64,000 nucleotides of DNA from a phage: sequence record OZ346212.1; one strand, 5' to 3'. A program made the translations under genes and the position numbers. This document shows, piece after piece, positions 1,521-22,152 of the stretch; position 1 is the stretch's first letter; every line of letters begins with the position of its first letter. The notes below the pieces were generated by a model. It was not told the DNA's origin, ran no database searches, and was given only the letters and a program-made list of their open reading frames with translations.

Positions 1521-3944
1521 ATGAGCATGTGGTCGTTCGACTTTGAGTCATCCGGTTTGCTGGAAGACCCAGATCTTTATTATCACTGCGGCCTGTTTAA
1601 AGAGCTGAATAAGAACCGTTTTATGCTGTTCCTTCCTCTAAATGACCGCACACACTACTCCGAGGAGGATATAGAAAAGGCTAAGAACTTCATTCTGGCA
1701 AAGAAAACTCTTTATAAAGATTTTGAAGTTCGCATAGCAGATTTTTCAGAGTTGGAAGGTTGGCTTACAGGAAATTCTGACTGGTCACCAACAGCTTTGA
1801 ACTGCCATAACTGCTACAGTTATGACTTTATGCTGATGGAAAGATTATCTGGTATTCATTTTGATATGTTCCGTGATCCTAAGTGTATGGGGACTATCAA
1901 CGATCACCAGGTTAACCTGTTTGATACGTTGGCGATGAGCCGAATCTTGTGGCCTGATCGCCCTTTACCAAAAGGTTGTCCGGACTCTGTATTCAACCCG
2001 GTTACTAAGAAAATGCAGCCTGTTGGTCCTCACGGCCTTATGGCATGGGGCTACGCCCTTGGTAACCAGAAAGTTCAAATTGATGACTGGCGCGATCTTC
2101 CGTTATGGAAGTATGTGGATCGTGTATTTGAGGACGTTATCATCCAGGAGCTGCTCTGGAAAGAGCTGGTAGCGGAATCAAAAGGTGTATTCTACGGCAA
2201 ATCTGACATGCAGAACTTTATGTACGATCCTGCCAAAGAGAAGCCGAAAGGGTTCAAGAAGATCACCTGGAAGAACGCATTACGTCGAGGCATGTTGCAG
2301 CACTTCCTGATGGAGCTGCAGGCCCGTCAGGGTGTATACTTCGACATAGATGGGGCTATTGCTTTACGTGACCGCTGCGATGCGTGGATGAAAGAGATCG
2401 CTGATCGTGTTGAACCACAACTGCCTTTAAAAGAGCTGTCAATGTCTCAGCGGCCCAAGTTCCCTGAAAAGCCGTTTAACCAAGATGGGACAATCTCTAA
2501 TAATGGTTGGAAATGGTTAAAAGATAAGCTTGGCTATCCTGTGGACATGAGTGCTTTAGAGTTCAAAGCCCCACCTAAGCGAGCATTTACCTCTACAGGA
2601 GATGTCAGTAAGATGGGGATAAAATGGTGTGAAGAGATGGGCTGCAAAGACCACGATAAGATGGCTGATTTCTTGAGAGGTTATATTAAGGGCACCTCCA
2701 CACCACAACCTTTACCTAAAGAGCTGATGGATCAGGCAATAAGCGATCTGCAACAGAAGCGAATGCCTGACTGCAAGATACCTATGAAAATCAGCAATCA
2801 GGACGACATTAAGCGATACCTGATCAGTGCTGGTTGGCTTCCGACAATGTGGAGAACTAAGGATGTAACTAAGGACAGCAAGAAGAAAGCTCTACCTGAT
2901 GCAGATGTTGATGCACGAGTATATGCATACATGGACGAGCTTTTAGAGTCAGAGTATTGTGACCTAATTATCAACTTCTGGAACAAAACTGATGCTAAGT
3001 TTCAGACAACAGTGCACAAGTTCCGAAGCTTTCCTAACTCCGAAAGGATTAAAAAGGAAGTGTTCGGGAAAATACGCAGAAAAGCCAGGGCACTTATTAC
3101 TTCTCCGCAACTGAAAGATACGTTTGGACACCTATGTCCGAATCTTGAAAAATTGAACGGAGAGATGGCTAAAGATATCGTCTTGTGGTTATCATTGCGA
3201 AACCGCAGATCGGTCCTTGATCCAATCAAGGAGGATAAGGTTGATACTGGTCTTCTTAATCACCCACGTTTGAAGATTGACCATAAGCTTCCTGCTAAAA
3301 GCTCTGGATTAACAAACACTTCCCGACAGAAACACAGTATTTGTGCAAACATGCCTAAACCATCTCCTAAAGTGGTTATGGGTAAAGAGATGCGTAGCTT
3401 GTGGGGTGTTCCTCCTGGATACTTTGAGATCGGTATTGACGGGTCCAACTTAGAGCAGCTTATCGGGGCTTGGGGTGCCTTTGAGTTCGACAACGGCTTG
3501 TACTATGATGTTGTAAGTAACGGGGACGCACACCAAAACAATGCTGAGGCATATACAAAAGTAGCAGGCAGAGAGGTGTCTCGTAACGACGGTAAACCTA
3601 TCACGTATGGGGTTATGTACGGGGCACAAAAAGATAAAGTTGCAGATATGCTGGATATCTCCCCAGAGTTGGGGCAAAGGGTGATCGATGCACTTTGGGA
3701 TGCCAACCCAGGTCTTAAGGGGCGCAAAGAGGATCTGGAGAAATTCTGGGAAGCAACAGGTAAGAAGTTTATCTACTCTTTTGATGGTCATGCTATCTGG
3801 ACCCGATCTAAACACTCTTTACTTAATGCATACCAACAAAATGGCGGCGCATCGTTGTGTGACTTAGTTGGGATACTCATGCACCATCAAATGGTGAAGC
3901 GTGGGTGGTACGATGAAGGTGTTCGTCGTATTATCTATTACCAT
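1521..3944 (+). CDS. DNA polymerase family A, exon 1
   Basis: RBS AAGGAG before ATG 1521; Exo I FDFESSG; motif B KPITYGVMYGAQ; ORF ends at the His that should start motif C (HDE). Confidence 0.85.
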
Positions 3945-4786
3945 AAATAACATTGTGGCTTCGTGCAGTGATGCACGTCGAAAACCTCTTTAATTGACGG
4001 GAAGGCTAAGTTGACTTTTACACCTAAACATGGTAAAAGCTCAATATGCTAATCCGCAGCGAAGACTAAAGGGGTGTAGTTAAAATGGCTAGATCAGTTG
4101 AGTATCACGGATATACCGTGTTTGATGATGGAACAATACCTTTATCGAAACGTGATCATACAACAATGTTTTGTTTTGATAATGGTCGAGGTTACCTTTG
4201 CGTAACCATGTTCATCGAGGGGAAGCAGTGCACAAAAGGTGTCCACCACTTGGTTGCTGAATGCTTTGTATCAAACCCTGATCCTGAAAGGCTCACATGG
4301 GTGAACCATAAGGACGGAAACAAATACAACAATGCATACTGGAACCTTGAATGGACCACCCCTGGTGGAAATATCAAACACGCTTATGATAATGACCTCA
4401 GAGTAAGGCCAGTCGGTGAGTATAATGCCAACGCTGTACTGACCGAGGATGAGGTAACGGAGATTTGCGAACTGTTACAAAGTGGTTTACGACAATGCGA
4501 GATTAGGGATCTTGGGTATCCTTATGAGACGGTCAGAGCCATAAAGCAAAGAAGACAGTGGAAACATATCTCTAAAAACTACACCTGGTAGTAACGTTCA
4601 GAGACTATCGAAAGCATAGCGCCAACATAAATTGGTGCGAAGAAGCGAGTAGAGTAGACCAGCAAGTGCGGTCGAAATGGGAGGTGCCTTGGTAACAAGG
4701 TAGTGAGATAGTCCGATCCATACAGGAAACTGTATGGCTGTGCACGTAATGGTGCGGGGTAGCTTAACGACCTACCTGAACTATTG
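3945..4786 (+). mobile_element. group I intron interrupting DNA polymerase motif C
   Basis: Exon 1 ends in T3944, intron ends in G4786; P/Q/R/S-like elements at 3994, 4051-4060 (AATCCGCAGC), 4596-4610 (GTTCAGAGACTATCG), 4705-4714 (GAGATAGTCC); contains HNH ORF. Confidence 0.7.
4085..4591 (+). CDS. HNH homing endonuclease (intron-encoded)
   Basis: RBS AAAGGGG; HNH signature NHKDGNKYNNAYWNLEW; located inside intron. Confidence 0.8.
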   Translation: MARSVEYHGYTVFDDGTIPLSKRDHTTMFCFDNGRGYLCVTMFIEGKQCTKGVHHLVAECFVSNPDPERLTWVNHKDGNKYNNAYWNLEWTTPGGNIKHAYDNDLRVRPVGEYNANAVLTEDEVTEICELLQSGLRQCEIRDLGYPYETVRAIKQRRQWKHISKNYTW

Positions 4787-5140
4787 GATGAGTACCAACT
4801 TCAAGTCCCTGACACACCGAAGTATAAGACTGTGTACACCTTCGACACAATCGAAGAACTGGAAGCATTTAAGGCAGAGCAGGAGGCCAAACTTCATGTG
4901 TTCGACGGTCATAAGTACAAAAAGGCACGCAAGGATGAGGACGGAAACGAAGTGGTTGACAGAGACGGAAACACGGTGTACGATCCTATCCTGAACGATG
5001 ACGGAAAGCTTGAACTTATCTGGAGCCCTGTGGGTGAAATGGTGGTGCATTGCTTCTGGCAAGCTTCTAAAATGATGGGCGTCCCGTTCCAGATCACGGG
5101 TGAATACCTGTGTGGTCGTAATTGGGGTGATTGTCACTAA
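4787..5140 (+). CDS. DNA polymerase family A, exon 2
   Basis: Begins with DE completing motif C (IIYYH|DEYQLQV); C-terminus GRNWGDCH matches Pol I / T7 pol ends. Confidence 0.75.
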   Translation, partial: DEYQLQVPDTPKYKTVYTFDTIEELEAFKAEQEAKLHVFDGHKYKKARKDEDGNEVVDRDGNTVYDPILNDDGKLELIWSPVGEMVVHCFWQASKMMGVPFQITGEYLCGRNWGDCH

Positions 5141-11983: not shown

Positions 11984-12316
11984 ATGGTAACATTGGAAAG
12001 ACGTAAAGCTATTGCCGCCACACTGGCAGACATCTTTTGGGATTGTAATTTAAAATCTACCCGAAATTGTGGTGCATCTGTAGATGTATTATTCCCACGG
12101 CCTACTATTGTTGCAATGGGCAACCTGCTCGATGTGGTATATGGAGCATGGGACAAGGAAGGTGGATTCTATATCTGGCAACCTGACTACGGGACTTGGA
12201 AAGAGGTTAGTGGTTCTTCGGACTTCACTCCTGCAGTGGCTAAAATGGATGGCTGGAAAATCTATGTCGGTAACGACATGGAACTGAAAGGCGAAATTGT
12301 TTACTGGTTACCTTAA
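11984..12316 (+). CDS. hypothetical protein
   Basis: ORF track. Confidence 0.45.
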   Translation: MVTLERRKAIAATLADIFWDCNLKSTRNCGASVDVLFPRPTIVAMGNLLDVVYGAWDKEGGFYIWQPDYGTWKEVSGSSDFTPAVAKMDGWKIYVGNDMELKGEIVYWLP

Positions 12317-12337
12317 GAAAGTCCAGGAGATAAAGTT

Positions 12338-12583
12338 ATGAACAAAGGGTGGACATTTGTAGACGGCGTTAAAAACATGCCTCTAGGAAAGTATATTGTA
12401 GCCATGGCAGATGAGAATGGCAAGGTTGATTTCGGAGTTTGCGAGGTTGTTCTTGCAGGATCTGGTGACTATGCTCACAAAACTGGGATAATTAACGGTC
12501 ATTTCTACTTTGATTACAACCCTGTTGTGGCGTATATGGCTATGCCAGAGTTCGAGCTCCCAAAGGAAGGTGCAGATGTTTAA
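12338..12583 (+). CDS. hypothetical protein
   Basis: ORF track; RBS CAGGAGA. Confidence 0.45.
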   Translation: MNKGWTFVDGVKNMPLGKYIVAMADENGKVDFGVCEVVLAGSGDYAHKTGIINGHFYFDYNPVVAYMAMPEFELPKEGADV

Positions 12584-12773
12584 GCTTAAATCTGCATGGA
12601 ACATCGCTGTGGGGGACGAGATCCGTATCCCAGGTGGAAAGACCATTATGAAAATATCTCGTATCGAGTACGAAGGTGATCGTGTATTTCATATCTTTGC
12701 AGAAGATGGTCGAGAGATTTATATACAGGTAGGATCTCACATCTATATTCGTAAGAAAGGGGAGGACAAATGA
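12576..12773 (+). CDS. hypothetical protein
   Basis: Start moved to ATG 12576 after RBS AAGGAAGG. Confidence 0.4.
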   Translation: MFKLKSAWNIAVGDEIRIPGGKTIMKISRIEYEGDRVFHIFAEDGREIYIQVGSHIYIRKKGEDK

Positions 12774-13099
12774 CAGAGATCATCATTTCAACTGCAGGGT
12801 ATGTATTCCTGACAATCATTGCACTGGCTATTTTGGTGACAGTGTATGGGTTTGTTATCCTTCCTATCCTTGAGACATTTAGTTTGTGTCGGTGTTGGAG
12901 AAAAGCTTACGGTCCACAACCATGGAAGGACTGGCCCCACCTGGTGCGCTTAGCGTTCTCTTATGCTTACGATCACTCCAGTAGTGCATGCATAACCGGA
13001 TACCACGCCCACAACTGGAGCTGGGAAGGGTTGAGGAAATGGAATGTTACAAAGACCATACCTCTGCGCATGTACAAACCTAAAAACAAAGACAACTGA
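12770..13099 (+). CDS. membrane protein
   Basis: N-terminal hydrophobic helix; RBS GGGGAGGA. Confidence 0.45.
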   Translation: MTEIIISTAGYVFLTIIALAILVTVYGFVILPILETFSLCRCWRKAYGPQPWKDWPHLVRLAFSYAYDHSSSACITGYHAHNWSWEGLRKWNVTKTIPLRMYKPKNKDN

Positions 13100-13705
13100 T
13101 ACTTGAAAATTCCTGGCATATCAAGTATAAGGGGGATTTCTAAAATGGATTTCCTCCTTTTGATATTTCACCGGGCTGGATATTTTAAAATTCTTAGAAA
13201 ATCAGAAAATGGATCGAAAACTAAAATGGATTTTTCAGAGTAGGCGCGACAAGCTGAATAACTCATCCTATCGTTTGCACCATATTCCAGGCCACCATTA
13301 TAGATTTCCCACACATGCTAACCTCTCCCTACTAGAACTTCCTCCACTTACCCTTGACCTTCTATGGTAACAATCTAACCGCTATCTTGAAGTTGCGGTG
13401 CAGCTTTCCAGGTACTCGATCTACTTTTCATTTCAGGGCTTGGATTTTCTGAAAATTTTTCTCGATAAATTTCTCAGTACTCGATCTGTTTTTCGTTTTC
13501 TGAATCGGATTTTCTGGAAATCGTTCCGGCTCTCAACCTGAAATTTTTGGGGACGAAATCGATTTTTCGTTTTCAGAAATGGATTTTTAAAATTTCTATA
13601 TGGGAATATTTTAGTGGATACTGTTTTATAGGAAATTGTTACGGAGGGTAATTAGCATGCTAATTAAATTTATTAAATGCGAGGAGTTCTCATTTAGAAT
13701 TTTGA
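13100..13705. repeat. AT-rich non-coding region with reiterated TGGATTTT-type motifs and ~50-bp direct repeats
   Basis: No credible ORF; motif at ~13147, 13181, 13230, 13440, 13510, 13590; direct repeats at ~13407 and ~13475. Confidence 0.6.
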
Positions 13706-14280
13706 ATGATAATCATTCTCGTTTGCAGAATAACGGGCAGGCCCGGTGATTGTCTCCCGGCCCCTGTTGCCCCGGCTTGTTATTATAGTATCACACAGGA
13801 CAAAGAAAGCAAGGACTTTTTGCATAAATTTTTAAATGATAATGATAACCGTTCTCATTTTATGCAGCGCCCATCCCCGGTGGTTGTCTCCCCCGTCACC
13901 GGTGCCTGCCGTCCTTTCGATATGTATATTGTGCCACCTGGCGGGGCCGCTGTCAACACTTTTCAAAAAATTTTTCTAACCTGGTGCGCTAACCGTTGCA
14001 ACCTGGCGGGGCCAGCCTGGCAGGACCTAACTGACCAGGTAGGGGAGAATGAAGGCTTGTAAACCTGGTGGGCCTATGCTACAGGATAGGTAACAATTGA
14101 AGAGGAGGTACAAAAATGATATGATCCCCCTGGAAAATGTAGCTATTAATGACTCTGAGGCTATCGCCCTGGTTGAAAAGGCTATGGCGGGAGCGTTGGA
14201 ACATAAAGAAGAGTACGAAAATGGTGGTTAACCTGGCGGGGGCGGCAGGTGGATTCTATCATAAAAATAATTTAAAATAG
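13706..14280. repeat. GC-rich repeat family (AACCTGGCGGGGCC) and duplicated ~60-bp segments
   Basis: Motif at ~13936, 14000, 14229 (also 20056); segments 13700-13790 and 13830-13920 share TGATAAT...CCGGTG(A/G)TTGTCTCCC. Confidence 0.55.
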
Positions 14281-14283
14281 TAG

Positions 14284-14311
14284 TTGACAACAAGGTTAAT
14301 CATGGTATTAT
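14284..14311 (+). promoter_or_regulatory. sigma70-like promoter (TTGACA-N16-TATTAT)
   Basis: Read from sequence. Confidence 0.55.
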
Positions 14312-14361
14312 TACCCTACAAGGTGAACAACACCGCACTAACCAGTAAAGAGGATAAATTT

Positions 14362-14559
14362 ATGAACGCATACGGGATCAAAGTACGTCGCAACACTCGC
14401 CAGGTGGTCACCAATCAAGTGATTTGCCGGGTGGATGTAACCATCAACAACGGGCAAGGCCTTTATAAATTTCGTCGCGGTCATAGCTATACCCTGCAAC
14501 AGCTTAATCGTTGCGCCCTGACAAAAGGTCAGATCAACCACTGGTTTAATAAAAAATAA
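14362..14559 (+). CDS. hypothetical early protein
   Basis: ATG 14362 after RBS AAGAGGA. Confidence 0.5.
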   Translation: MNAYGIKVRRNTRQVVTNQVICRVDVTINNGQGLYKFRRGHSYTLQQLNRCALTKGQINHWFNKK

Positions 14560-14623
14560 GTATTGACATACAGTCAGACACCAAATACACTAAAAGCACA
14601 AAAGACACTAAGAGGATAAAATC

Positions 14624-14809
14624 ATGAAAACCACTACCTTTAATTTTGATAATGCAGACTTTTCTTTTTCTGATGTCAAGAACTGCCGCCGTGATCGTGG
14701 ATTTTACAAGGCTTATAATCTGGTGGGCCTGGACGATGACAATAATTTGCACGAAGTAGCTGAGATCCAGCTTGACAGATTGGACGGGAAAGTACTAAAA
14801 ACTTATTGA
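14624..14809 (+). CDS. hypothetical early protein
   Basis: RBS AAGAGGA; own promoter at 14563. Confidence 0.5.
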   Translation: MKTTTFNFDNADFSFSDVKNCRRDRGFYKAYNLVGLDDDNNLHEVAEIQLDRLDGKVLKTY

Positions 14810-14811
14810 GT

Positions 14812-14856
14812 TTATTTTTAGATGGCCTTGACACCAGGGCCATCAATAAAGTAAAC
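14812..14856 (+). repeat. conserved 45-bp promoter-associated element, copy 1
   Basis: TTATTTTTAGATGGCCTTGACACCAGGGCCATCAATAAAGTAAAC; TTGACA sits in the loop of the ATGGCC/GGCCAT inverted repeat. Confidence 0.6.
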
Positions 14857-14889
14857 TAACCACAGTTGAGCGGAAAAGGAGGCTTAAAG

Positions 14890-15012
14890 ATGAGCACTAC
14901 ACGCCAGCACACAAAGGTAACCATCATCGTTTGCATCATTGGGTACATCCTGGCGCAAATGTTGATGGGTAGCGCCAACGGTGTCGCAAAATTTTTCTTA
15001 AACTTTTAATTG
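14890..15012 (+). CDS. small hydrophobic peptide (40 aa)
   Basis: Not in ORF track (<60 aa); RBS AAAGGAGG; MSTTRQHTKVTIIVCIIGYILAQMLMGSANGVAKFFLTFN. Confidence 0.45.
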
Positions 15013-15036
15013 ACAAGCTAACTTAAATCGATATAA
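15009..15036 (+). promoter_or_regulatory. sigma70-like promoter (TTGACA-N16-TATAAT)
   Basis: Read from sequence. Confidence 0.6.
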
Positions 15037-15088
15037 TAAGCACATAAACGGGAAAACTTCCCAGAACACACAAAAGGAGAAAAACACC

Positions 15089-15430
15089 ATGACTACTATG
15101 ACCGCCTCAGAAAAAGCTATGCAGATCGCTGAACTGAAAAAACAGATCGCAGACCTTGAGAATAAGATCGATAACTTTGAAATCGACGAGGACAAGTACG
15201 ACGAAAACTATGATGAATGGTTAGACGAGATCTACGGCGAAATTATGATCGGAAACATTTCTTTTCTTCCGTCGCGTATCCTCAAGGAGCTAGATCCTAT
15301 CGCTTACCGCTGCGGATTTAGCGACTACATCGACAGCCTGGATATTGAGGACGATGAAGAATACCAGGAATTACAGACAGAGTTAGAAGAAGCAAAAGAA
15401 GAGCTTGCGGAGCTGGAAGAAAACGAGTAA
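15089..15430 (+). CDS. acidic coiled-coil protein
   Basis: RBS AAAGGAGA; E/D-rich. Confidence 0.55.
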   Translation: MTTMTASEKAMQIAELKKQIADLENKIDNFEIDEDKYDENYDEWLDEIYGEIMIGNISFLPSRILKELDPIAYRCGFSDYIDSLDIEDDEEYQELQTELEEAKEELAELEENE

Positions 15431-15432
15431 GC

Positions 15433-15477
15433 TTATTTTTAGATGGCCTTGACACCAGGGCCATCAATAAAGTAAAC
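15433..15477 (+). repeat. conserved 45-bp promoter-associated element, copy 2
   Basis: Identical to copy 1. Confidence 0.6.
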
Positions 15478-15519
15478 TTTATACTGTTAACACTGAACTA
15501 ATGCATAGGAGTTAAAACC

Positions 15520-15765
15520 ATGGCAGCACTAATCACCAAATATTATGCCCCTACCAACACCAAAAGCGCCCGTATCATGGTAAAAGGCTTCGGACGTAAA
15601 AAGGTGTACACCTGGGATTATGCCTTAGACACGGAAGACAACTACACCAACGCAATGACCGATTTTATTAATGAACTAAATAAGCAGATCTTGACAAGTT
15701 ATAAAGTGACCGATATTGCTTATATAGGTGAAGGCGGGATCTGTTTTGTAGGCATTGTGAAATAG
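15520..15765 (+). CDS. hypothetical early protein
   Basis: RBS TAGGAG. Confidence 0.5.
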   Translation: MAALITKYYAPTNTKSARIMVKGFGRKKVYTWDYALDTEDNYTNAMTDFINELNKQILTSYKVTDIAYIGEGGICFVGIVK

Positions 15766-15839
15766 TTATTTTTTCGGTGGTCCTGGTTGCAGGGCCATCT
15801 ATAAAGATAATTTATTAACACCATGAAAGGAGAAAGTAC

Positions 15840-16193
15840 ATGATCAGCGGGGCAAGTTTTATTATTGGCGCTATTGCTACGGCTTTAATTGTAAATAAGA
15901 TCCAGGATAAAAAGGAAAGAGGAAGTACCGCCCTTGCAGAATATCCATTTTGGGCATTCAACGATAACGAAGATTATATTATAAAGTATAAAAATAAAGA
16001 AGGTGACCAAGTAACACCGCGACCGATCCCGGCTTACAAAATGCAGGAAACACTATACCGCCTGGAGGCGGGTGGCGCAAAAATTGTAGACTTTTGGGGA
16101 TACGACCACACAGATCAGGAAGTTATAAAGCGCCGTATCCGGGCTATTCAGGCCAATATTGAAGTTAGCAAGGGGGGAATATATGAAAATTAA
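15840..16193 (+). CDS. membrane-anchored protein
   Basis: N-terminal TM helix; RBS AAAGGAGA. Confidence 0.5.
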   Translation: MISGASFIIGAIATALIVNKIQDKKERGSTALAEYPFWAFNDNEDYIIKYKNKEGDQVTPRPIPAYKMQETLYRLEAGGAKIVDFWGYDHTDQEVIKRRIRAIQANIEVSKGGIYEN

Positions 16194-16380
16194 TTTCGAG
16201 AAAATTGTAAAGCGCCCTCATGATTCCGAAGAGCTGCCAGAACGCCGCCAGCGTAACAATAAACTGAATAAGCCAAAAAGGTTTGGGAAGATCTGGCGTA
16301 ATCATTATGATCGTAAATTGCCCGGCCTACTTTTGGAACGTGAACGACAGGCAGAACGATACCGCCATAAAGACAAATAA
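16183..16380 (+). CDS. small basic protein
   Basis: Start moved to ATG 16183 after RBS AAGGGGGG; K/R-rich. Confidence 0.45.
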   Translation: MKINFEKIVKRPHDSEELPERRQRNNKLNKPKRFGKIWRNHYDRKLPGLLLERERQAERYRHKDK

Positions 16381-16388
16381 CAACCAAC

Positions 16389-16418
16389 GCCCCGCCATTG
16401 TGCGGGGCTTTTTATTTC
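16389..16418 (+). terminator. intrinsic terminator
   Basis: GCCCCGC-cattgt-GCGGGGC followed by TTTTTATTT. Confidence 0.75.
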
Positions 16419-16537
16419 TATCCTACGAATAGCGCCCCTGGTTGGCCCTGTAAGCGCCAAAAAGGCCCCCACCTATGCAATCGCCCCTTTAACCTGAAAA
16501 CATCGCCCAGGGCCGTTTCATGGCGTTAAAAATATCA

Positions 16538-16565
16538 TTGACATCGTCAACAGGTTAGCTATACT
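16538..16565 (+). promoter_or_regulatory. sigma70-like promoter (TTGACA-N16-TATACT)
   Basis: Read from sequence. Confidence 0.55.
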
Positions 16566-16597
16566 AACCACATCAAAGAGAGAAAGGAGTAAACGCC

Positions 16598-16858
16598 ATG
16601 CGTAAATTAAAAAATTTTGATAAAGTTGATGTTATCCTGAATAATTTTTACTACTGCAACAACAAGGCTATTTGGTGGCGTGATAGTTCCACCGATAAAG
16701 TCAGGGCGCGCTTTCTTCAGGGGCACTGGCAAGGCCGCCCAGTGATTAAAATCATGGGGCAATCGGTAGCGTTTAAAAATTGCCGCCGTGTTGATGACGT
16801 TGAGGAGATTTTAAACATTTTGCGCCACAATAATTTAAAAAATAGTGTTGACAAGTAA
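16598..16858 (+). CDS. hypothetical early protein
   Basis: RBS AAAGGAG. Confidence 0.5.
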   Translation: MRKLKNFDKVDVILNNFYYCNNKAIWWRDSSTDKVRARFLQGHWQGRPVIKIMGQSVAFKNCRRVDDVEEILNILRHNNLKNSVDK

Positions 16859-16875
16859 GCCTCAATAAGTATACT
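16848..16875 (+). promoter_or_regulatory. sigma70-like promoter (TTGACA-N16-TATACT)
   Basis: Read from sequence. Confidence 0.55.
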
Positions 16876-16932
16876 TAAACACACAGGCGGGAAAACTTCC
16901 CGCCACTAACAAAGAAAATAGGAGAAAATATC

Positions 16933-17556
16933 ATGACCACCGTTAACATTACCGCAGGTTACAATTTATCTTTCGACGTGCTGACCGACGAACAAAAAGA
17001 AAAAGCCGTTGAAATGGTCCGCGAAAGAGAAGAACACAGCGGGGATAACTTTTTTGCAGAAAGTGTAATTGAATACTATAAAGAATATGTTTTTCCAGAG
17101 TATGGCCTTGAAGATACCGAAGTACATTGGTCAGGCTTTTGGTGCCAGGGTGACGGCGCGTCAATCAGTGCTGAAAACGTGGATTTAGAAAAATTTTTAC
17201 GTAAAGTAAAGGCCCTGACCAAGTTCCGATCAATTCGTCACTTGTTCGGCACAATGCACGATGGCGAGTTATCAGCCAGTGTTGAACGCGACAAGTACAG
17301 CCATTACAGCCATGAAAACACTGTAAGCGGGTACATTGATACCACTTGGCTAGATCTGACCGCCAAACAAGAAAACAAAGTGGAAGACCTGGAAGAACTG
17401 ATCACCGAGACGGTACGGGAGCTATCCCGCAAGGTTTACGTAGACCTGGAGGAGGCCTATCTAGAACAGTTCACCGCAGAAAACCTGATCGGCCTTATCG
17501 AGGCCAATGATTGGCGGTTTGATGTCGATGAATATGGTGAGATGACTTTTTCATAA
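16933..17556 (+). CDS. hypothetical early protein (207 aa, acidic)
   Basis: RBS TAGGAGA; largest ORF of the early cluster. Confidence 0.6.
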   Translation: MTTVNITAGYNLSFDVLTDEQKEKAVEMVREREEHSGDNFFAESVIEYYKEYVFPEYGLEDTEVHWSGFWCQGDGASISAENVDLEKFLRKVKALTKFRSIRHLFGTMHDGELSASVERDKYSHYSHENTVSGYIDTTWLDLTAKQENKVEDLEELITETVRELSRKVYVDLEEAYLEQFTAENLIGLIEANDWRFDVDEYGEMTFS

Positions 17557-17564
17557 ATAAAGTG

Positions 17565-17592
17565 TTGCAATAACCTAAAAACCTGCTATATT
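17565..17592 (+). promoter_or_regulatory. sigma70-like promoter (TTGCAA-N16-TATATT)
   Basis: Read from sequence. Confidence 0.5.
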
Positions 17593-17646
17593 AAAACTCA
17601 AGGGGGCAAGACGTTTGCCCCAACACAAAACAAAGAGGATAACATC

Positions 17647-18027
17647 ATGAAAAACACTACCAAGGCTATTGACACCGTTATGTTTAACCTGGTTACATTC
17701 CGTGAAGATATGAAAGATCTTCCTCGTGAAACAGTGTGCGACCATATCGAAAACTATCGCAAACTAATCAAAGAGTTGCCTTTAAAACGTGATCAATATG
17801 CGGCTAACGCCATGCTTAATGCCATGATCAAAAAGATGATCCAGTGTGATTTAACCCTGGCCTATGATTATGCAGGCGGTCGTTTTGCAGTATACAATCA
17901 GCCCGTGCCCGGTATGAGCACCACCGAAGAATTGCACGCGCTCAATCTAAAACAAGACGTGTGGGATAGTATGCCTCGCGTGGTGGTATGGGTAGAAAGC
18001 GGAAAGATTTACGGCGATAATTTTTAA
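17647..18027 (+). CDS. hypothetical early protein
   Basis: RBS AAGAGGA. Confidence 0.55.
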   Translation: MKNTTKAIDTVMFNLVTFREDMKDLPRETVCDHIENYRKLIKELPLKRDQYAANAMLNAMIKKMIQCDLTLAYDYAGGRFAVYNQPVPGMSTTEELHALNLKQDVWDSMPRVVVWVESGKIYGDNF

Positions 18028-18037
18028 TCAGGTAGCA

Positions 18038-18063
18038 GGCGGCATATTTGCCGCCTTATTGTT
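18038..18063 (+). terminator. intrinsic terminator
   Basis: GGCGGCA-tattt-GCCGCC followed by TTATTGTT. Confidence 0.6.
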
Positions 18064-18091
18064 AATCAGAACTGTAAAAGAGGTACATAGA

Positions 18092-18463
18092 ATGGAATTT
18101 ATTATTTTGGCTGTATTGGTTGCCTTGTTTAACGCCTGGATCGCTGGCAAGATGGGAAGATCCGCCTTTTTATGGTTTATTATATCTATTTTCCTGGGGG
18201 TGGTTGCAACTATTGTATTGGTTATCCTTGCAATTGTTGACAAGGGGAATAATAGAAAGGGTAAAGTATTTTCAGACCTGTACGACGCTCAAACGTTTGT
18301 CAACGCCTATTATAGTGATCTTCCAGTCTCCCTACGTTGCAGCCTTGCACAACAGGTTTTCGATGAAGCTAAAACCAGAGATCACGCCCATGAGATTTGT
18401 TTAACTGAGGCGGATCGCCTATTTGAGAGGAATAGAAAATATGTGGACCAGCCGTTTAAATAA
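18092..18463 (+). CDS. membrane protein
   Basis: Start moved to ATG 18092 after RBS AAGAGG; two hydrophobic helices. Confidence 0.5.
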   Translation: MEFIILAVLVALFNAWIAGKMGRSAFLWFIISIFLGVVATIVLVILAIVDKGNNRKGKVFSDLYDAQTFVNAYYSDLPVSLRCSLAQQVFDEAKTRDHAHEICLTEADRLFERNRKYVDQPFK

Positions 18464-18682
18464 TGCCACGTTAATTAACCCCTTTAGTAAAGATTTGAAG
18501 CCAGCCGCCTGGCGGGATGGATTCAATAACGAACGCTTTATTTTCAGGCCTGATCTTGAGGAATTTTATAACAATGGATCGAACAACAGCGGAGATAATT
18601 TTTCTTGTGGTGTGTGTCGTGATAGGACTCCTGGGGGCCATTGTAGATCGCGTCACTACTACCAGAAGGAAAGGGGGAGACG

Positions 18683-18802
18683 ATGACAACCAAGGATAAG
18701 CCCCGCACCGATAAGGTGCGCCGTGTTATGGTATGGCTTGAGATCATCGCCCTTGAAATATTGTTAGGCGTAGGGATGTATTTTATCTCTGTAAGTAACT
18801 GA
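18683..18802 (+). CDS. small membrane peptide (39 aa)
   Basis: Not in ORF track; strong RBS AAGGGGGAGA; MTTKDKPRTDKVRRVMVWLEIIALEILLGVGMYFISVSN. Confidence 0.45.
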   Translation: MTTKDKPRTDKVRRVMVWLEIIALEILLGVGMYFISVSN

Positions 18803-18806
18803 TAAC

Positions 18807-18838
18807 GGCCCCCGATCCCTGGGGGGCCTAACTTTTTT
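18807..18838 (+). terminator. intrinsic terminator
   Basis: GGCCCCC...GGGGGGCC followed by TTTTTT. Confidence 0.7.
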
Positions 18839-18861
18839 CAAAAAATTTTTCTTCCGGGGTG

Positions 18862-18890
18862 TTGCAATCCGGTCCTGAATATGGATAATA
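18862..18890 (+). promoter_or_regulatory. sigma70-like promoter (TTGCAA-N17-ATAATA)
   Basis: Read from sequence. Confidence 0.5.
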
Positions 18891-18945
18891 ACAATCAACG
18901 GGGAAACATCCCCACCAACACAAAAACCAGAAAGGAGAAACAAAA

Positions 18946-19146
18946 ATGAGCAACAATATCCGCGTTATTAACTTCAAAAAAGAAGAAAAAATTGCCGTGC
19001 TGATTGACGGTCAAGAAATCTTCAAGGGCGACTATGAAGATCATCAAACGGCGATTAGTATCACTCGCGTGATTGGTTACCATAATTTTTACCCCCAAGG
19101 CGCTGAGGCGGCGGTTAAACGAATCAAAGAGATTGTAGGCCTGTAA
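18946..19146 (+). CDS. hypothetical early protein
   Basis: RBS AAAGGAGA. Confidence 0.5.
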   Translation: MSNNIRVINFKKEEKIAVLIDGQEIFKGDYEDHQTAISITRVIGYHNFYPQGAEAAVKRIKEIVGL

Positions 19147-19149
19147 AAT

Positions 19150-19194
19150 TTATTTTTAGATGGCCTTGACTCTAGGGCCATCAATAAAGTAAAT
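19150..19194 (+). repeat. conserved 45-bp promoter-associated element, copy 3
   Basis: Two substitutions relative to copies 1 and 2. Confidence 0.6.
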
Positions 19195-19233
19195 TTAAAC
19201 CCTGTTAAAATACCACGCAGTTAACAAGGAGTA

Positions 19234-19539
19234 ATGATCATGTTTATCCAGGCTAATAATCTTTATTTCTTTGATGGTCAGATCGTAGATGGTGTGGAAG
19301 TGGAGATCACTGGGTGCCCTGGTGGTCAGGCTATGACTTTTCGGAATAATGCCTTTGATGATTCTCATATCGTTATGAGAATGGAAGTTACAAAGCTGGA
19401 CGACAAGAAAACGCTCATTGACTATTCCGTGAAAGATCATCCAGACTACCACATGATCTATGGTGATTTGTGCATTGTTGACCGTGACAAGGTGGGCGGC
19501 ATTGTGATCGCTATTGTGAACGATGTTTTCTCTGTATAG
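19234..19539 (+). CDS. hypothetical early protein
   Basis: RBS CAAGGAG. Confidence 0.5.
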   Translation: MIMFIQANNLYFFDGQIVDGVEVEITGCPGGQAMTFRNNAFDDSHIVMRMEVTKLDDKKTLIDYSVKDHPDYHMIYGDLCIVDRDKVGGIVIAIVNDVFSV

Positions 19540-19600
19540 TTCCGGCAAATGATGCAAAATAAGGCCCCTAGCAGGGCCTACAGCGATATAATCACATAAA

Positions 19601-19630
19601 GGCCATGCAACCGCATGGCCTTTATTATTT
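19601..19630 (+). terminator. intrinsic terminator
   Basis: GGCCATGC-aacc-GCATGGCC followed by TTTATTATTT. Confidence 0.7.
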
Positions 19631-19678
19631 TGGCGTTACAGCGGCCCCAAGGCGCTTAAAAATTTTTTAAAGAAGTAC

Positions 19679-19706
19679 TTGCATCAAGCCCTACAATATG
19701 GATAAT
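19679..19706 (+). promoter_or_regulatory. sigma70-like promoter (TTGCAT-N16-GATAAT)
   Basis: Read from sequence. Confidence 0.5.
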
Positions 19707-19717
19707 AGGACGTGTCA

Positions 19718-19731
19718 GGGGGGGGGGGGGG
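19718..19731 (+). repeat. G14 homopolymeric tract in 5' leader
   Basis: 14 consecutive G between the -10 box and the RBS of gene 19771. Confidence 0.9.
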
Positions 19732-19770
19732 AGGCCCCAATCATTAACCGGATAGATAGGAGTTAAAACC

Positions 19771-20055
19771 ATGGCTATTGTTACCGCTGGCGATGTAGTA
19801 GAAATGGAAGCAAAATACTTAAAAGCGGGTATGCATATCCTACGCAACGATCTTGAACTGGTCCTGACAATGGTTGACTATAACCCAGGGCAAGATTATC
19901 CAAGTGTTGACTACTTTTTTGAGTATGTTGATGAAGAGTTGAAAGAGGATGAGGCCTATTGCGGTGAGTTCTGCAACTTCTTTTGTCCTGATGAGGTTGT
20001 AAAGGTTATCTATCAACCTGGCGTAGCTTTCCCGCTGCACGCTATCAATAAATAA
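19771..20055 (+). CDS. hypothetical early protein
   Basis: RBS TAGGAG. Confidence 0.5.
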   Translation: MAIVTAGDVVEMEAKYLKAGMHILRNDLELVLTMVDYNPGQDYPSVDYFFEYVDEELKEDEAYCGEFCNFFCPDEVVKVIYQPGVAFPLHAINK

Positions 20056-20117
20056 ACCTGGCGGGGCCGAAAAGGCCCCCGCCTGAAATTATGAAAAATA
20101 AAAAGAGGCAAACTATC

Positions 20118-20351
20118 ATGATGGAACAAATTAAACGCGCTGAGGCTATTAATGGCAATGTAATCTATTTTGTCAGCAAAAACGAAAAAGGCGTACCCTA
20201 TGCGGCGGTAATAGTACAGCCTGACGGCGATTATTGGTGCACTGTGTACGGCGCTTATTCTTTTGGGCGTCCAGTGCATGATAAAATTTTGAAAGTAGCG
20301 AACCCTACCGGGAAAAATATTACAGCAGAAAAATTTTTTGAAAAAAGTTGA
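20118..20351 (+). CDS. hypothetical early protein
   Basis: Start moved to ATG 20118 after RBS AAGAGG. Confidence 0.5.
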   Translation: MMEQIKRAEAINGNVIYFVSKNEKGVPYAAVIVQPDGDYWCTVYGAYSFGRPVHDKILKVANPTGKNITAEKFFEKS

Positions 20352-20375
20352 CATGACCATATAAAACTGTAGTAT
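20348..20375 (+). promoter_or_regulatory. sigma70-like promoter (TTGACA-N16-TAGTAT)
   Basis: Read from sequence. Confidence 0.5.
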
Positions 20376-20427
20376 ATAAATCAAAGGGGGCAACAAGCCC
20401 CACCAACCACAAAGAGGATAAAAAATC

Positions 20428-20607
20428 ATGGCTATTATTGCAAAGACCGAGATCGTAGGCTTAGATTCTATTCTCCTCGCATATGAGGAAGCTATAGAAA
20501 TGTATGTGGTTTCCTATGGTGAGTATATCCGTGAATATGAATCTATTGATCTAGCTTTTGAATGTTATATTCGCCAGGTTAATAAAGCGTACGATGATTA
20601 TCGTTAA
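20428..20607 (+). CDS. hypothetical early protein (59 aa)
   Basis: Not in ORF track; RBS AAGAGGA. Confidence 0.45.
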   Translation: MAIIAKTEIVGLDSILLAYEEAIEMYVVSYGEYIREYESIDLAFECYIRQVNKAYDDYR

Positions 20608-20698
20608 AATAGTTTGACAACAAACAACCATCTAACAAAGCATAATACATAAGGTGGTAGAATGATCCGCCACCCGGAACAAAGAAGAGGTAAACACC

Positions 20699-20944
20699 AT
20701 GAAAAGCAATAAAGGTTATAACGGTTACAAAAACAAAACTCATTGGAATGTAAGCCTTTGGATTAATAACGATGAGTCATTGTACCGGTTGGCCCAAGGA
20801 TTTATTAACGCTAATGCTAATCGTAATGATGCGGCGCGGGATATGATGCTTTTTCTGGAGCTAACCGGACAAGATAAGACCCCGGACGGCTTCAAGTACA
20901 GCACTACGGCGATCCGTGCCGCGATGGTTGGAATGAAACACTAA
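20699..20944 (+). CDS. hypothetical early protein
   Basis: RBS AGAAGAGG. Confidence 0.5.
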   Translation: MKSNKGYNGYKNKTHWNVSLWINNDESLYRLAQGFINANANRNDAARDMMLFLELTGQDKTPDGFKYSTTAIRAAMVGMKH

Positions 20945-21271
20945 AAGCACATAGCCGCCAGATCTCAGAATTTACGTACGCTCACCAGTCTATAGCCTGC
21001 TAAGTATTTATTCCAACCATAGAATAACGGAATAGTCAATACCTGCATAAAATAATTATTCGTGTAAACTGCATAACATAAATCGGCTAGGATGTCAACA
21101 TTTTTCGTAAACAGCTCGAAATTATAACGGTGAGTTATAATAAACAGAGAAATCTTTAGTCGTCTAATGTTTACTGTACATTACTATACTGACTGGAATC
21201 ATTAGATGACTAAGAGAAAGATAAGAAATCATTAACAATGCAATTGTTTTATTCGTAACAATAAGGCAACT

Positions 21272-21563
21272 ATGCAAACGGATGGCATGGCGCGACGGAG
21301 TCGCGACATAATATAAAAGCAGTAACCATCACCCCCGTGATAGTTTGTCTGCAAACTATTAATCAGATCATAGTTGCCTTGTATTTAGTTAATCATGACA
21401 TAACAAGCAAGGCAACTATAGATCTGCTAATAGTTGCCCTGCTTTTATATTATGTCATAGATTATTAGCCTGTTAATTGTTAGTCAGTCAAATCAACAAC
21501 GTTATCATTTCAGTCTTTATTGTTGTTGATCGTTATTGTTATCATGCAAACGAATGGCATGGC
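21272..21563. repeat. dyad-symmetry cluster bounded by 20-bp direct repeats
   Basis: ATGCAAACG(G/A)ATGGCATGGC at 21272 and 21544; between them AGGCAACTAT in both orientations, ATGACATAA/TTATGTCAT and CGCGAC/GTCGCG palindromes. Confidence 0.6.
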
Positions 21564-21936
21564 TTATCATTTTTGAGTAAACAATCTATACGTGAACAGT
21601 GAGGCAAGTTAGCAGCCGATAGATTAGATATTAACCTGCAGACTTCTGACCGTCTAGACGTCTAAACGCCCACACAACAAGGATTATACATACAATACTG
21701 AATGTAAACAGGGCCGCAAAAATGCTACCATACCACAGATTGTAAATTTTTCATGCAGCACTTGACAAAGAGGAGAACTTAATTTTATCAGGATAGGCAA
21801 GAATGTCAAGGCATGACTGCTCACTAAACAAGCAAACAGTCATGTGTGGGAGGTAAGTGATTGTGGTGGTAGGAAATTTAGTTGAAAGATGTGTTATAGG
21901 TGCTTCCAGCACTTTAGCCGGGCAGCTAATTGTGTG

Positions 21937-22152
21937 TCAGTCCAGCGGTTCATCCTCTACTTCACTGAAATCAATGTTCATGGTCTCTTCCCAACCATCG
22001 ATCTCAGCACAAGAGTGGAGTTCTTTAGGGTTTACTCCTAAAGCCTCAGCAACAGAGTCTATATTTAACACCTCTGGCAGGTATGATTCATCAAATTCAA
22101 GGTAAATCAGGCCACGAGTGTTGTCAGCTCCACCAAATATTTCTATCTTCAT
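21937..22152 (-). CDS. hypothetical acidic protein
   Basis: ORF track. Confidence 0.45.
   Translation of the reverse strand: MKIEIFGGADNTRGLIYLEFDESYLPEVLNIDSVAEALGVNPKELHSCAEIDGWEETMNIDFSEVEDEPLD

Follow-up and report, generated by a model that had tools for sequence, protein, structure and literature searches.

Promoter–hairpin cassettes in front of small early genes of an rV5-like coliphage have the sequence features of the PeSL elements of T4-type phages

The phage sequence record OZ346212.1, of which a stretch of 64,000 nucleotides was analysed (the window, to which all coordinates refer unless another genome is named), carries in front of a number of small genes a repeated regulatory module in which a host-type promoter is directly followed by a short hairpin. 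From 5′ to 3′ a cassette of this kind comprises an A/T-rich tract resembling an UP element and a sigma70 promoter whose spacer measures 16 bp. The A-rich start region of about 10 nt contains a CA and is followed by a hairpin, the arms of which are a G-run and a C-run and after which there is no U-tract, by a leader of about 11 nt which is rich in A and C but has little U or G, and by a strong Shine–Dalgarno (SD) sequence and the ATG. The module is real, statistically strong, and evolutionarily maintained, and a role at the RNA level is plausible. We consider it an evenly balanced proposition that these cassettes form a family of compact and exchangeable expression units for early genes, whose 5′ hairpin and U-poor leader would give rise to long-lived and heavily translated early mRNAs. 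An earlier note on this DNA had correctly described the modular succession of promoter, leader hairpin, CA-rich spacer, and SD sequence. It overlooked the likeness to the PeSL (promoter-early stem–loop) elements of T4-type phages and the role of the cassettes as joints, the spread over several coliphage lineages, additional members and a second cassette type, and the lack of a canonical promoter in the sixth member.

The association of promoter and hairpin is far above chance expectation. Between positions 14,000 and 20,500 six of the seven promoters with a 16-bp spacer are accompanied by a stem at a distance of 8–13 nt, whereas 2000 shuffles give 0.31 on average and never more than 3. In the whole window a hairpin is found at 7 of 13 promoters with this spacer versus 1 of 45 promoters with other spacers (Fisher p = 4e-5), and over all loci compared in 68 of 99 distinct spacer-16 leaders versus 15 of 123 leaders with other spacers (p = 1e-18). 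Thirty-one distinct hairpins stand behind spacer-16 promoters. They start 8–13 nt past the −10 hexamer, in 25 cases 10–12 nt past it, their median distance to the SD sequence is 11 nt, and in 30 of them the G-arm precedes the C-arm. With respect to the promoter two types of hairpin position occur: past the −10 hexamer, which is the main type, and enclosing the −35 hexamer, which we call type A.

The strict association of the hairpin with the 16-bp spacer and its fixed distance to the −10 hexamer could also be expected if the hairpin were an aid to promoter clearance. Nascent RNA structure limits backtracking of the polymerase; the nascent hairpin might therefore stop backtracking and sigma-dependent proximal pausing, and the 16-bp spacer might loosen an over-tight consensus promoter. 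We regard such a function as quite unlikely, as the hairpin can form only after about 35 nt have been transcribed, that is, past promoter escape, and as other strong promoters of the phage (spacers of 17–18 bp) have no hairpin. Direct evidence for an aid to clearance is also missing.

Between 15,000 and 21,000 the window is 93–97% identical to many genomes of Vequintavirus (rV5-like) coliphages. The cassettes sit in a series of small plus-strand genes that stops near 21,000, and beyond it starts a long minus-strand block. The open reading frames (ORFs) behind the cassettes code for 59–207 aa and are all called hypothetical in the annotation of the relatives. The main-type cassettes of one complete Vequintavirus genome are clustered in about 7 kb homologous to 14.2–20.7 kb of the window, with two more cassettes about 17 kb upstream. 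The earlier note had spoken of at least six members, and eight can be counted when the overlooked cassettes at 14284 and 19679 are included. Its six hairpins are all present, each within 1 nt of where it had placed them, and fold as RNA with −5.5 to −14.6 kcal/mol (z −1.7 to −4.5 against dinucleotide shuffles). A near-consensus sigma70 promoter, which it had assigned to all six, precedes five of them (15010, 16848, 17565, 18862, and 20348; scores of 9–12 of 12 and a 16-bp spacer). The stems of these five begin 10–12 nt past the −10 hexamer. The sixth has no such promoter, its TTGACA and CATAAT being separated by 21 nt. Altogether seven cassettes and three type-A copies reach promoter scores of 9–12 of 12, and element 6 fails. 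The A/T-rich tracts 5′ of the −35 hexamer, read off the sequence, are ttcttaaacttttaa, atttaaaaaatagtg, attttttgaaaaaag, aaattttttaaagaag, and similar. The A/C-rich tract leading to a strong SD sequence is evident from the base composition between hairpin and SD sequence (A 55%, C 23%, T 13%, G 9%) when compared with the remaining leaders of the window (A 35%, C 21%, T 25%, G 19%).

Cassette 1 (15010–15091, like all cassettes and repeats described here on the plus strand) has the promoter TTGACA-16-TATAAT (12 of 12; 15010–15037), the orthologue of which is annotated as P192 in rV5, the hairpin GGGAA-aac-TTCCC (15050–15062), the leader AGAACACACAAA, the SD sequence AGGAG (15075–15079), and the ATG at 15089. 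The most stable hairpin, GGCGGGAA-aac-TTCCCGCC (16886–16904, −14.6 kcal/mol), belongs to cassette 2 (16848–16935), where it is preceded by TTGACA-16-TATACT (16848–16875) and followed by AGGAG (16920–16924) and the ATG at 16933; relative L002 has GGTGGGAA with a U.G pair and relative L016 an inverted loop (gtt). Cassette 3 (17565–17649) uses TTGCAA-16-TATATT with a TG (17565–17592), followed by the hairpin GGGGCAA-gacgt-TTGCCCC (17603–17621), the leader AACACAAAACAAA, GAGGA (17635–17639), and the ATG at 17647. Among the relatives the loop of this hairpin is inverted in L015, and the stem of L014 has a G.U pair and a new G-C pair. In cassette 4 (18862–18948) the promoter TTGCAA-16-GATAAT (18862–18889) stands before the hairpin GGGGA-aaca-TCCCC (18900–18913), the leader ACCAACACAAAAACCAGAA, AGGAG (18933–18937), and the ATG at 18946, and a separate terminator lies upstream (18807–18828). 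Cassette 5 (20348–20430) comprises TTGACA-16-TAGTAT (20348–20375), GGGGC-aacaa-GCCCC (20387–20401), the leader ACCAACCACAAA, GAGGA (20414–20418), and the ATG at 20428.

The two additional members are less regular. The cassette at 14284 (14284–14364) has the promoter TTGACA-16-TATTAT (14284–14311), a weak hairpin GGTG-aacaa-CACC (14322–14334), which in relative L002 occurs as a U.G wobble variant with CGCC, an A/C-rich leader, the SD sequence GAGGA, and the ATG at 14362. The cassette at 19679 (19679–19773) has TTGCAT-16-GATAAT (19679–19706), about 14 consecutive G with AGGCCCC behind them (19718–19738), AGGAG (19758–19762), and the ATG at 19771. Its relatives form clean hairpins at this place, either GGGGG-gcgg-CCCCC or GGAGGT-gat-GCCTCC, and a compensatory change from G-C to A-U is seen among them with G.U intermediates in L012–L014. 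The G homopolymer in this leader of gene 19771 (19718–19731, about 14 residues) is an expansion, the relatives having 6–7 G. Element 6 (20614–20701) contains an orphan −35 TTGACA (20614–20619), which is separated by 21 nt from CATAAT (20641–20646), the hairpin GGTGGTAGAATGATCCGCCACC (20653–20674), the leader CGGAACAAAGAA, the SD sequence GAGG (20687–20690), and the ATG at 20699. A promoter scan of the window finds no canonical promoter at this element.

Comparison with the relatives suggests that the hairpin is maintained. For six cassettes, with up to 10 orthologues each, we counted the differences per site in each part of the module. The −35 hexamer is invariant (0.000), followed by the 5′ stem (0.013), the SD sequence (0.026), the 3′ stem (0.044), the −10 hexamer (0.080), the start region (0.084), the A/C spacer (0.100), the promoter spacer (0.145), and the loop (0.168), and the difference between stems and loops is highly significant (p = 3e-11). 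Among orthologues the hexamers are unchanged and the promoter spacers variable. The loops are even found inverted, AAC being replaced by GTT and GACGT by ACGTC, and in addition to the changes described above the stems of the relatives differ by replacements of A-U by G.U and of G.U by G-C. These individual changes fit a hairpin which is retained as a structure rather than as a sequence. They were read from folds of the single sequences and from anchored counts, as MAFFT together with RNAalifold gave out-of-register hairpins for the leaders of different genera.

The same comparison bears on two other explanations. The palindromes might be elements of the DNA only, that is, hot spots of recombination or template switching that hitch-hike with the promoters and have no role in the RNA. 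The inversions of the loops are events at the DNA level, as are the differing lengths of the G-runs and C-runs among relatives (e.g., in the hairpins at 17603 and 18900), which point to slippage; moreover, joints between modules coincide with hairpin edges. Nevertheless, the conservation of the stems is about six times that of the loops and the promoter spacers, and across lineages the position relative to the −10 hexamer and the SD sequence stays the same despite the turnover of the sequences, so that an explanation by DNA alone appears very unlikely to us.

Alternatively, the hairpin might be specifically recognized, be it as the operator of a shut-off repressor at +4 to +22, as the site of an antiterminator of the N/boxB type, or by a processing nuclease. 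A palindrome directly past the start is in the classical position of an operator, and the stem sub-family GCGGGAA-N3-TTCCCGC is found in four phage lineages. However, the stems otherwise differ widely (GGGGC/GCCCC, GGCGGCA/TGCCGCC, GGTGG/CCACC, GGGGA/TCCCC) and the loops of 3–11 nt are variable in sequence and sometimes inverted. This free variation weakens the suggestion of the earlier note that the hairpins serve as recognition sites. In addition, none of the hairpins matches an Rfam family in a scan of 12,000–22,000 (E <= 1), which returned one chance match only. Antitermination by boxA and boxB (CGCUCUUA / UGCUCUUUAACAA) was rejected, since there is no conserved loop, the U-poor leaders contain neither CUCUU nor anything resembling the boxA sequence CUCUUU, and Rfam gives no match. 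Processing by RNase III was rejected as well, because stems of 4–9 bp are too short for the E. coli enzyme. Taken together, a specific recognition site is a distinctly doubtful reading.

The hairpins are not canonical intrinsic terminators. In the sense direction the 8 nt past the stem contain on average 0.9 T, and at most one T in 24 of the 31 hairpins, as compared with 5–7 T in the terminators of the same region, and for this lack of a U-tract we ruled out a terminator of the ordinary kind. An example of the latter is found on the plus strand at 16389–16408 with 7 T in the 8 nt past the stem, and further intrinsic terminators are located at 18037–18056, 18807–18828, and 19596–19625. Between the terminator 16389–16408 and a promoter at 16538 about 130 nt (16409–16537) are apparently non-coding and richer in GC, and among the relatives a 23-nt indel is found in this region beside the −35 hexamer.

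The original interpretation of the PeSL elements would see the stem–loop as an attenuator or terminator of read-through transcription, with the consequence that the expression of each small gene would depend mainly on its own promoter. In favor of this view, one RB49 PeSL stem–loop, which also has no long U-run, lowered the expression of a downstream lacZ as much as the rrnB T1 terminator did (PMC2839356). Most of the upstream genes extend into the next promoter or stop shortly before it, no terminator separating the two, and a hairpin in the style of the leader hairpins, GGCGGGGCC-gaaaa-GGCCCCCGCC, is found on the plus strand between two genes without a promoter and without a U-tract (20060–20083). 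On the other hand, with 0.9 U on average among the 8 nt past the stem the rU:dA hybrid for intrinsic termination is missing, and the hairpin lies within the transcript of its own cassette, where an efficient terminator would kill the expression of the gene and defeat a promoter of maximal strength. Cassette 4 and the cassette at 19679 already have canonical terminators upstream. Furthermore, an attenuator does not need a fixed distance to the −10 hexamer, and in RB49 the position of the stem–loop is in fact variable. We therefore think that attenuation is unlikely to be the function of the hairpins.

A related possibility is termination on the opposite strand, where the T-rich complement of the A-rich start region and the −10 hexamer comes after each hairpin and could stop transcripts coming from the convergent block at the right. 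Six of the hairpins were listed on the minus strand by the terminator scan, the 8 nt past the stem contain on this strand on average 3.9 T (at least 5 T in 11 of 31), and a block of minus-strand genes indeed begins near 22,000. Yet the U residues are interspersed (UGUGUGUUUA, CUAUGUGAUAC) and do not form proper U-tracts, eight or more terminators in series would be redundant, strong hairpins already exist at the point of convergence, and the link to the SD sequence and the A/C-rich leader would be left unexplained. Antisense termination thus appears highly improbable.

We suggest instead that the likeliest role of the hairpin is that of a 5′-terminal stabilizer on a U-poor leader resistant to RNase E. 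This reading, which the earlier note had already put forward, ranks highest because of the position locked at 9–12 nt past the −10 hexamer, the missing U-tract, the stems that are kept while the loops are free to vary, and the U-poor leader; it is inferred from the sequence. RNA polymerase of the host would start about 7–8 nt past the −10 hexamer at the conserved CA, which would leave 2–6 nt between the 5′ end of the mRNA and the hairpin. The position is called 5′-terminal since this usual start distance is assumed. RNase E prefers U, and the unstructured U-poor leader would present few sites to this enzyme and would leave the SD sequence free for loading of the ribosome and S1. At such a small distance from the 5′ end the hairpin could hinder RppH and the 5′-end-dependent entry of RNase E, as both enzymes require single-stranded 5′ ends, which is the reason why 5′ structures stabilize mRNA (PMC3997798). 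The outcome would be long-lived early transcripts and heavy translation.

Several points weigh against a 5′-terminal stabilizer. If transcription starts 6–8 nt past the −10 hexamer, 5–8 nt would be unpaired at the 5′ end in the cassette at 15010 and in the type found in phi92, which may be too many for protection. Hairpins of the same style without a promoter at 20060–20083 and on element 6 raise the possibility of a role in read-through transcripts, and one RB49 PeSL stem–loop caused a strong fall of downstream lacZ (PMC2839356). The stems of the relatives show compensatory and wobble changes, but the strict count of G.U versus A.C is 2 versus 0, too few cases to establish an asymmetry that would demonstrate pairing in the sense-strand RNA (by eye about 6–7 versus 3, not significant). 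The G-then-C polarity of the arms reads identically on both strands and was therefore dropped as evidence for the strand on which the hairpin acts. Finally, we found in the literature no mapped start sites, transcriptomes, half-lives, or reporter data for Vequintavirinae or phi92-like phages.

A more far-reaching version, which is speculative and which we hold to be improbable, is that hairpin and U-poor leader constitute a mark of 'self' sparing the early mRNAs of the phage when the phage accelerates the decay of host mRNA, for example, by a Srd-like stimulation of RNase E. The mark might move horizontally together with orphan genes between Vequintavirinae, Stephanstirmvirinae, Asteriusvirus, and Krischvirus as a module of expression and protection. 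The T4 protein Srd is cited in PMC4980113 as stimulating RNase E on host mRNA, and gp11 of rV5 was called Srd-like in the rV5 genome paper. The similarity of gp11 (3788–4720 of L142, outside the window) to the PHROG Srd anti-sigma family is weak (E = 6e-9), its best match is a family of HNH endonucleases (E = 9e-108), and a Pfam match was not obtained. Thus, the link of gp11 to Srd is weak.

The architecture extends beyond the Vequintavirus group. It is also present in phi92/KKE7M (Justusliebigvirus), in ZCKP1/phAPEC8 (Phapecoctavirus), and in the jumbo phage BF17 (Asteriusvirus), again with TTGACA or TTGCAA, a 16-bp spacer, a −10 hexamer, 10–14 nt with a CA, a stem of G-arm and C-arm, an A-rich leader, and an SD sequence, and it precedes orthologous and unrelated small genes alike. 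The orthologues of genes 17647 and 20699 in phi92/KKE7M, ZCKP1/phAPEC8, and BF17, which were picked by protein orthology and not by the presence of a hairpin, all have the architecture, each with a different stem sequence. The hairpin in BF17 that is homologous to the one of element 6 stands behind TTGCAA-16-TATAAT. Positions 1757–4809 of the 383-kb genome of Escherichia phage BF17 contain homologues of gene 17647 and, twice, of gene 20699 with about 70% DNA identity. Each of these homologues is preceded by a cassette of this type, which indicates a transfer of gene and cassette between unrelated coliphages. In environmental phages (IMG/VR, L003–L008) the cassette is absent at distant homologues of the 207-aa protein, and the cassette is hence not tied to the gene of this protein. 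The stem GGCGGGAA-N3-TTCCCGCC was found in 115 IMG/VR contigs, mostly with a T-run after the stem (92 of 232 orientations); as a leader hairpin it is used only in rV5-like or phi92-like contigs.

The type-A repeats are near-identical sequences of 45–48 bp whose hairpin GATGGCC..GGCCATC encloses the −35 hexamer. In the first copy (14810–14857, repeat TTATTTTTAGATGGCCTTGACACCAGGGCCATCAATAAAGTAAACT) the hairpin at 14821–14844 carries the −35 TTGACA in its loop and is followed, after an 18-bp spacer, by TAAACT. The second copy (15431–15478) has the hairpin at 15442–15465 and the promoter at 15449–15478, the third (19148–19195) the hairpin at 19159–19182 and the promoter at 19166–19195. A degenerate copy (15767–15810) with the hairpin GGTGGTCC..GGGCCATC (15776–15799) has no intact −35 hexamer. 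In phage Murica the type-A repeats are annotated as terminators; no U-tract follows them on either strand. Where the window has two of these repeats (14810 and 15431) flanking 621 bp with two ORFs, relative L001 has a single one, which is the expected outcome of recombination between direct repeats.

In addition, several breakpoints of homology fall at the cassettes, the joints of the mosaic relatives being located at the −35 hexamer, at the hairpin, and at the SD/ATG. Relative to phage FV3 the breakpoint is at 20353, within the −35 hexamer of cassette 5, in three phages it is at 20622/3, directly past the −35 of element 6, and in phage 203 at 20713, directly past the ATG. At element 6 the relatives share TTGACAACA (...TAAAATAGTTTGACAACA) and then split into at least four combinations of promoter spacer, hairpin, and gene. 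As the recombination joint lies directly after TTGACA, the −35 hexamer of this element is left as an orphan. Relative L016 is identical with L011 as far as the hairpin's 5′ arm and, beginning at the 3′ end of this hairpin, identical with L001, and promoter, hairpin, and gene form a mosaic among L001, L002, L011, L014, L016, and the window. This comparison of genomes supports the view that the conserved blocks of promoter and hairpin act as DNA joints for the exchange, deletion, and insertion of modules between phages in a PeSL-like manner. Not all indels are located at cassettes, however, as those at 14761–14768 and 20951–20959 are microhomology events away from them. At the former, the window is without about 690 bp present in all compared relatives (junction overlap of 7–8 bp); this indel fuses two ORFs into a 61-aa ORF (14624–14809) and removes one cassette of the form GGCGGGAA-tgt-TTCCCGCC. 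At the latter, with an overlap of 9 bp, JES2013, navn, phage 203, and FV3 have about 2.8 kb with about eight small genes that are absent from the window. Between 20945 and about 21200 the window is AT-rich and non-coding in appearance.

The PeSL elements are known from the T4-type phages RB49/phi1, PST, and nt-1 (Arbiol et al. 2010, PMC2839356; Comeau et al. 2014, PMC4122927). They consist of an A/T tract, a consensus sigma70 promoter, a poly-G/poly-C stem–loop, and an SD sequence with the ATG (PMC2839356), are clustered before orphan genes in hyperplastic regions, and mediate shuffling and the formation of mini-circles (PMC2839356; PMC4122927). All of their features that can be tested in the sequence are found here, and by this comparison the cassettes are the counterpart of the PeSL elements in other coliphage lineages. 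Both have the A/T tract, the sigma70 early promoter, the poly-G/poly-C stem–loop, the A/C-rich leader, and the terminal SD sequence and ATG, and both lie in a hyperplastic cluster of small orphan genes with indels and replacements between close relatives. A sub-class in which the hairpin lies past the −10 hexamer has been described (PMC2839356), the stem–loop of RB49 ORF207 being past the −10, and the leader of RB49 ORF192 reads AACACAAAACAAAAGGAG, as it does here. For one rV5 gene of the region the annotation notes a similarity to an RB49 protein, which fits a traffic of genes between the two groups. Nevertheless, there are differences. In RB49 the stem–loop is usually found between the −35 and −10 hexamers or over the −10, and thus outside its own transcript, and the promoter spacer is 17 bp, whereas in the main type described here the stem–loop is fixed 9–12 nt past the −10, within the transcript, and the spacer is 16 bp. 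The lineages differ as well, being here the Vequintavirinae and also Stephanstirmvirinae and Asteriusvirus. Terminator activity and mini-circles have been shown for PeSL, whereas the present cassettes are known from their sequence.

Other systems share some of these features. The 'host-takeover module' of the Bacillus phages SPO1 and SP82 has strong early promoters, conserved stem–loops between promoter and ribosome-binding site that are cleaved by Bs-RNase III, and very strong SD sequences. As in our case many small early genes are each provided with a host-type promoter, a leader stem–loop, and a strong SD sequence, but the stem–loops of SPO1 and SP82 are long RNase III substrates of conserved sequence, whereas here they comprise 4–9 bp and are variable. 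The leader of T7 gene 10 has a 5′ stem–loop of a comparable stabilizing kind. With the leaders of ompA and papA the cassettes have in common a short GC stem, which in the cassettes is predicted to lie a few nucleotides from the 5′ end, an unstructured leader, and a strong SD sequence, and they would share the mechanism suggested above (PMC3997798). In the ompA type about 0–4 unpaired nt precede the stem–loop. These three leaders are single cases mapped by experiment; here, in contrast, the same design would be repeated as an exchangeable module before many genes, with a predicted position of the hairpin and maybe 5–8 unpaired nucleotides. Intrinsic terminators, finally, have similar stems, but the leader hairpins have no U-tract (0.9 T in 8 nt) and are found past a promoter rather than past a gene.

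The rV5 genome paper, which gives lists of sigma70 promoters and terminators, does not describe this architecture, and in the rV5 record only P192, P186, and P195A/B are marked in this region and no hairpins. The annotation of these phages would gain as well, as few of the promoters of the cassettes are marked in the rV5 reference and the type-A repeat is labelled as a terminator in one record. If our interpretation is true, the leaders would provide a natural and compact list of parts for very high expression in E. coli, comprising UP tract, promoter with 16-bp spacer, 5′ hairpin, A/C leader, and SD sequence, as well as a testable link between the design of a leader and the escape from RNase E during host takeover. 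Mobile regulatory cassettes of the PeSL type, hitherto described from T4-type phages only, would then occur in at least three more groups of large coliphages, which suggests that unrelated phages may use them as a common currency in the movement of orphan early genes.

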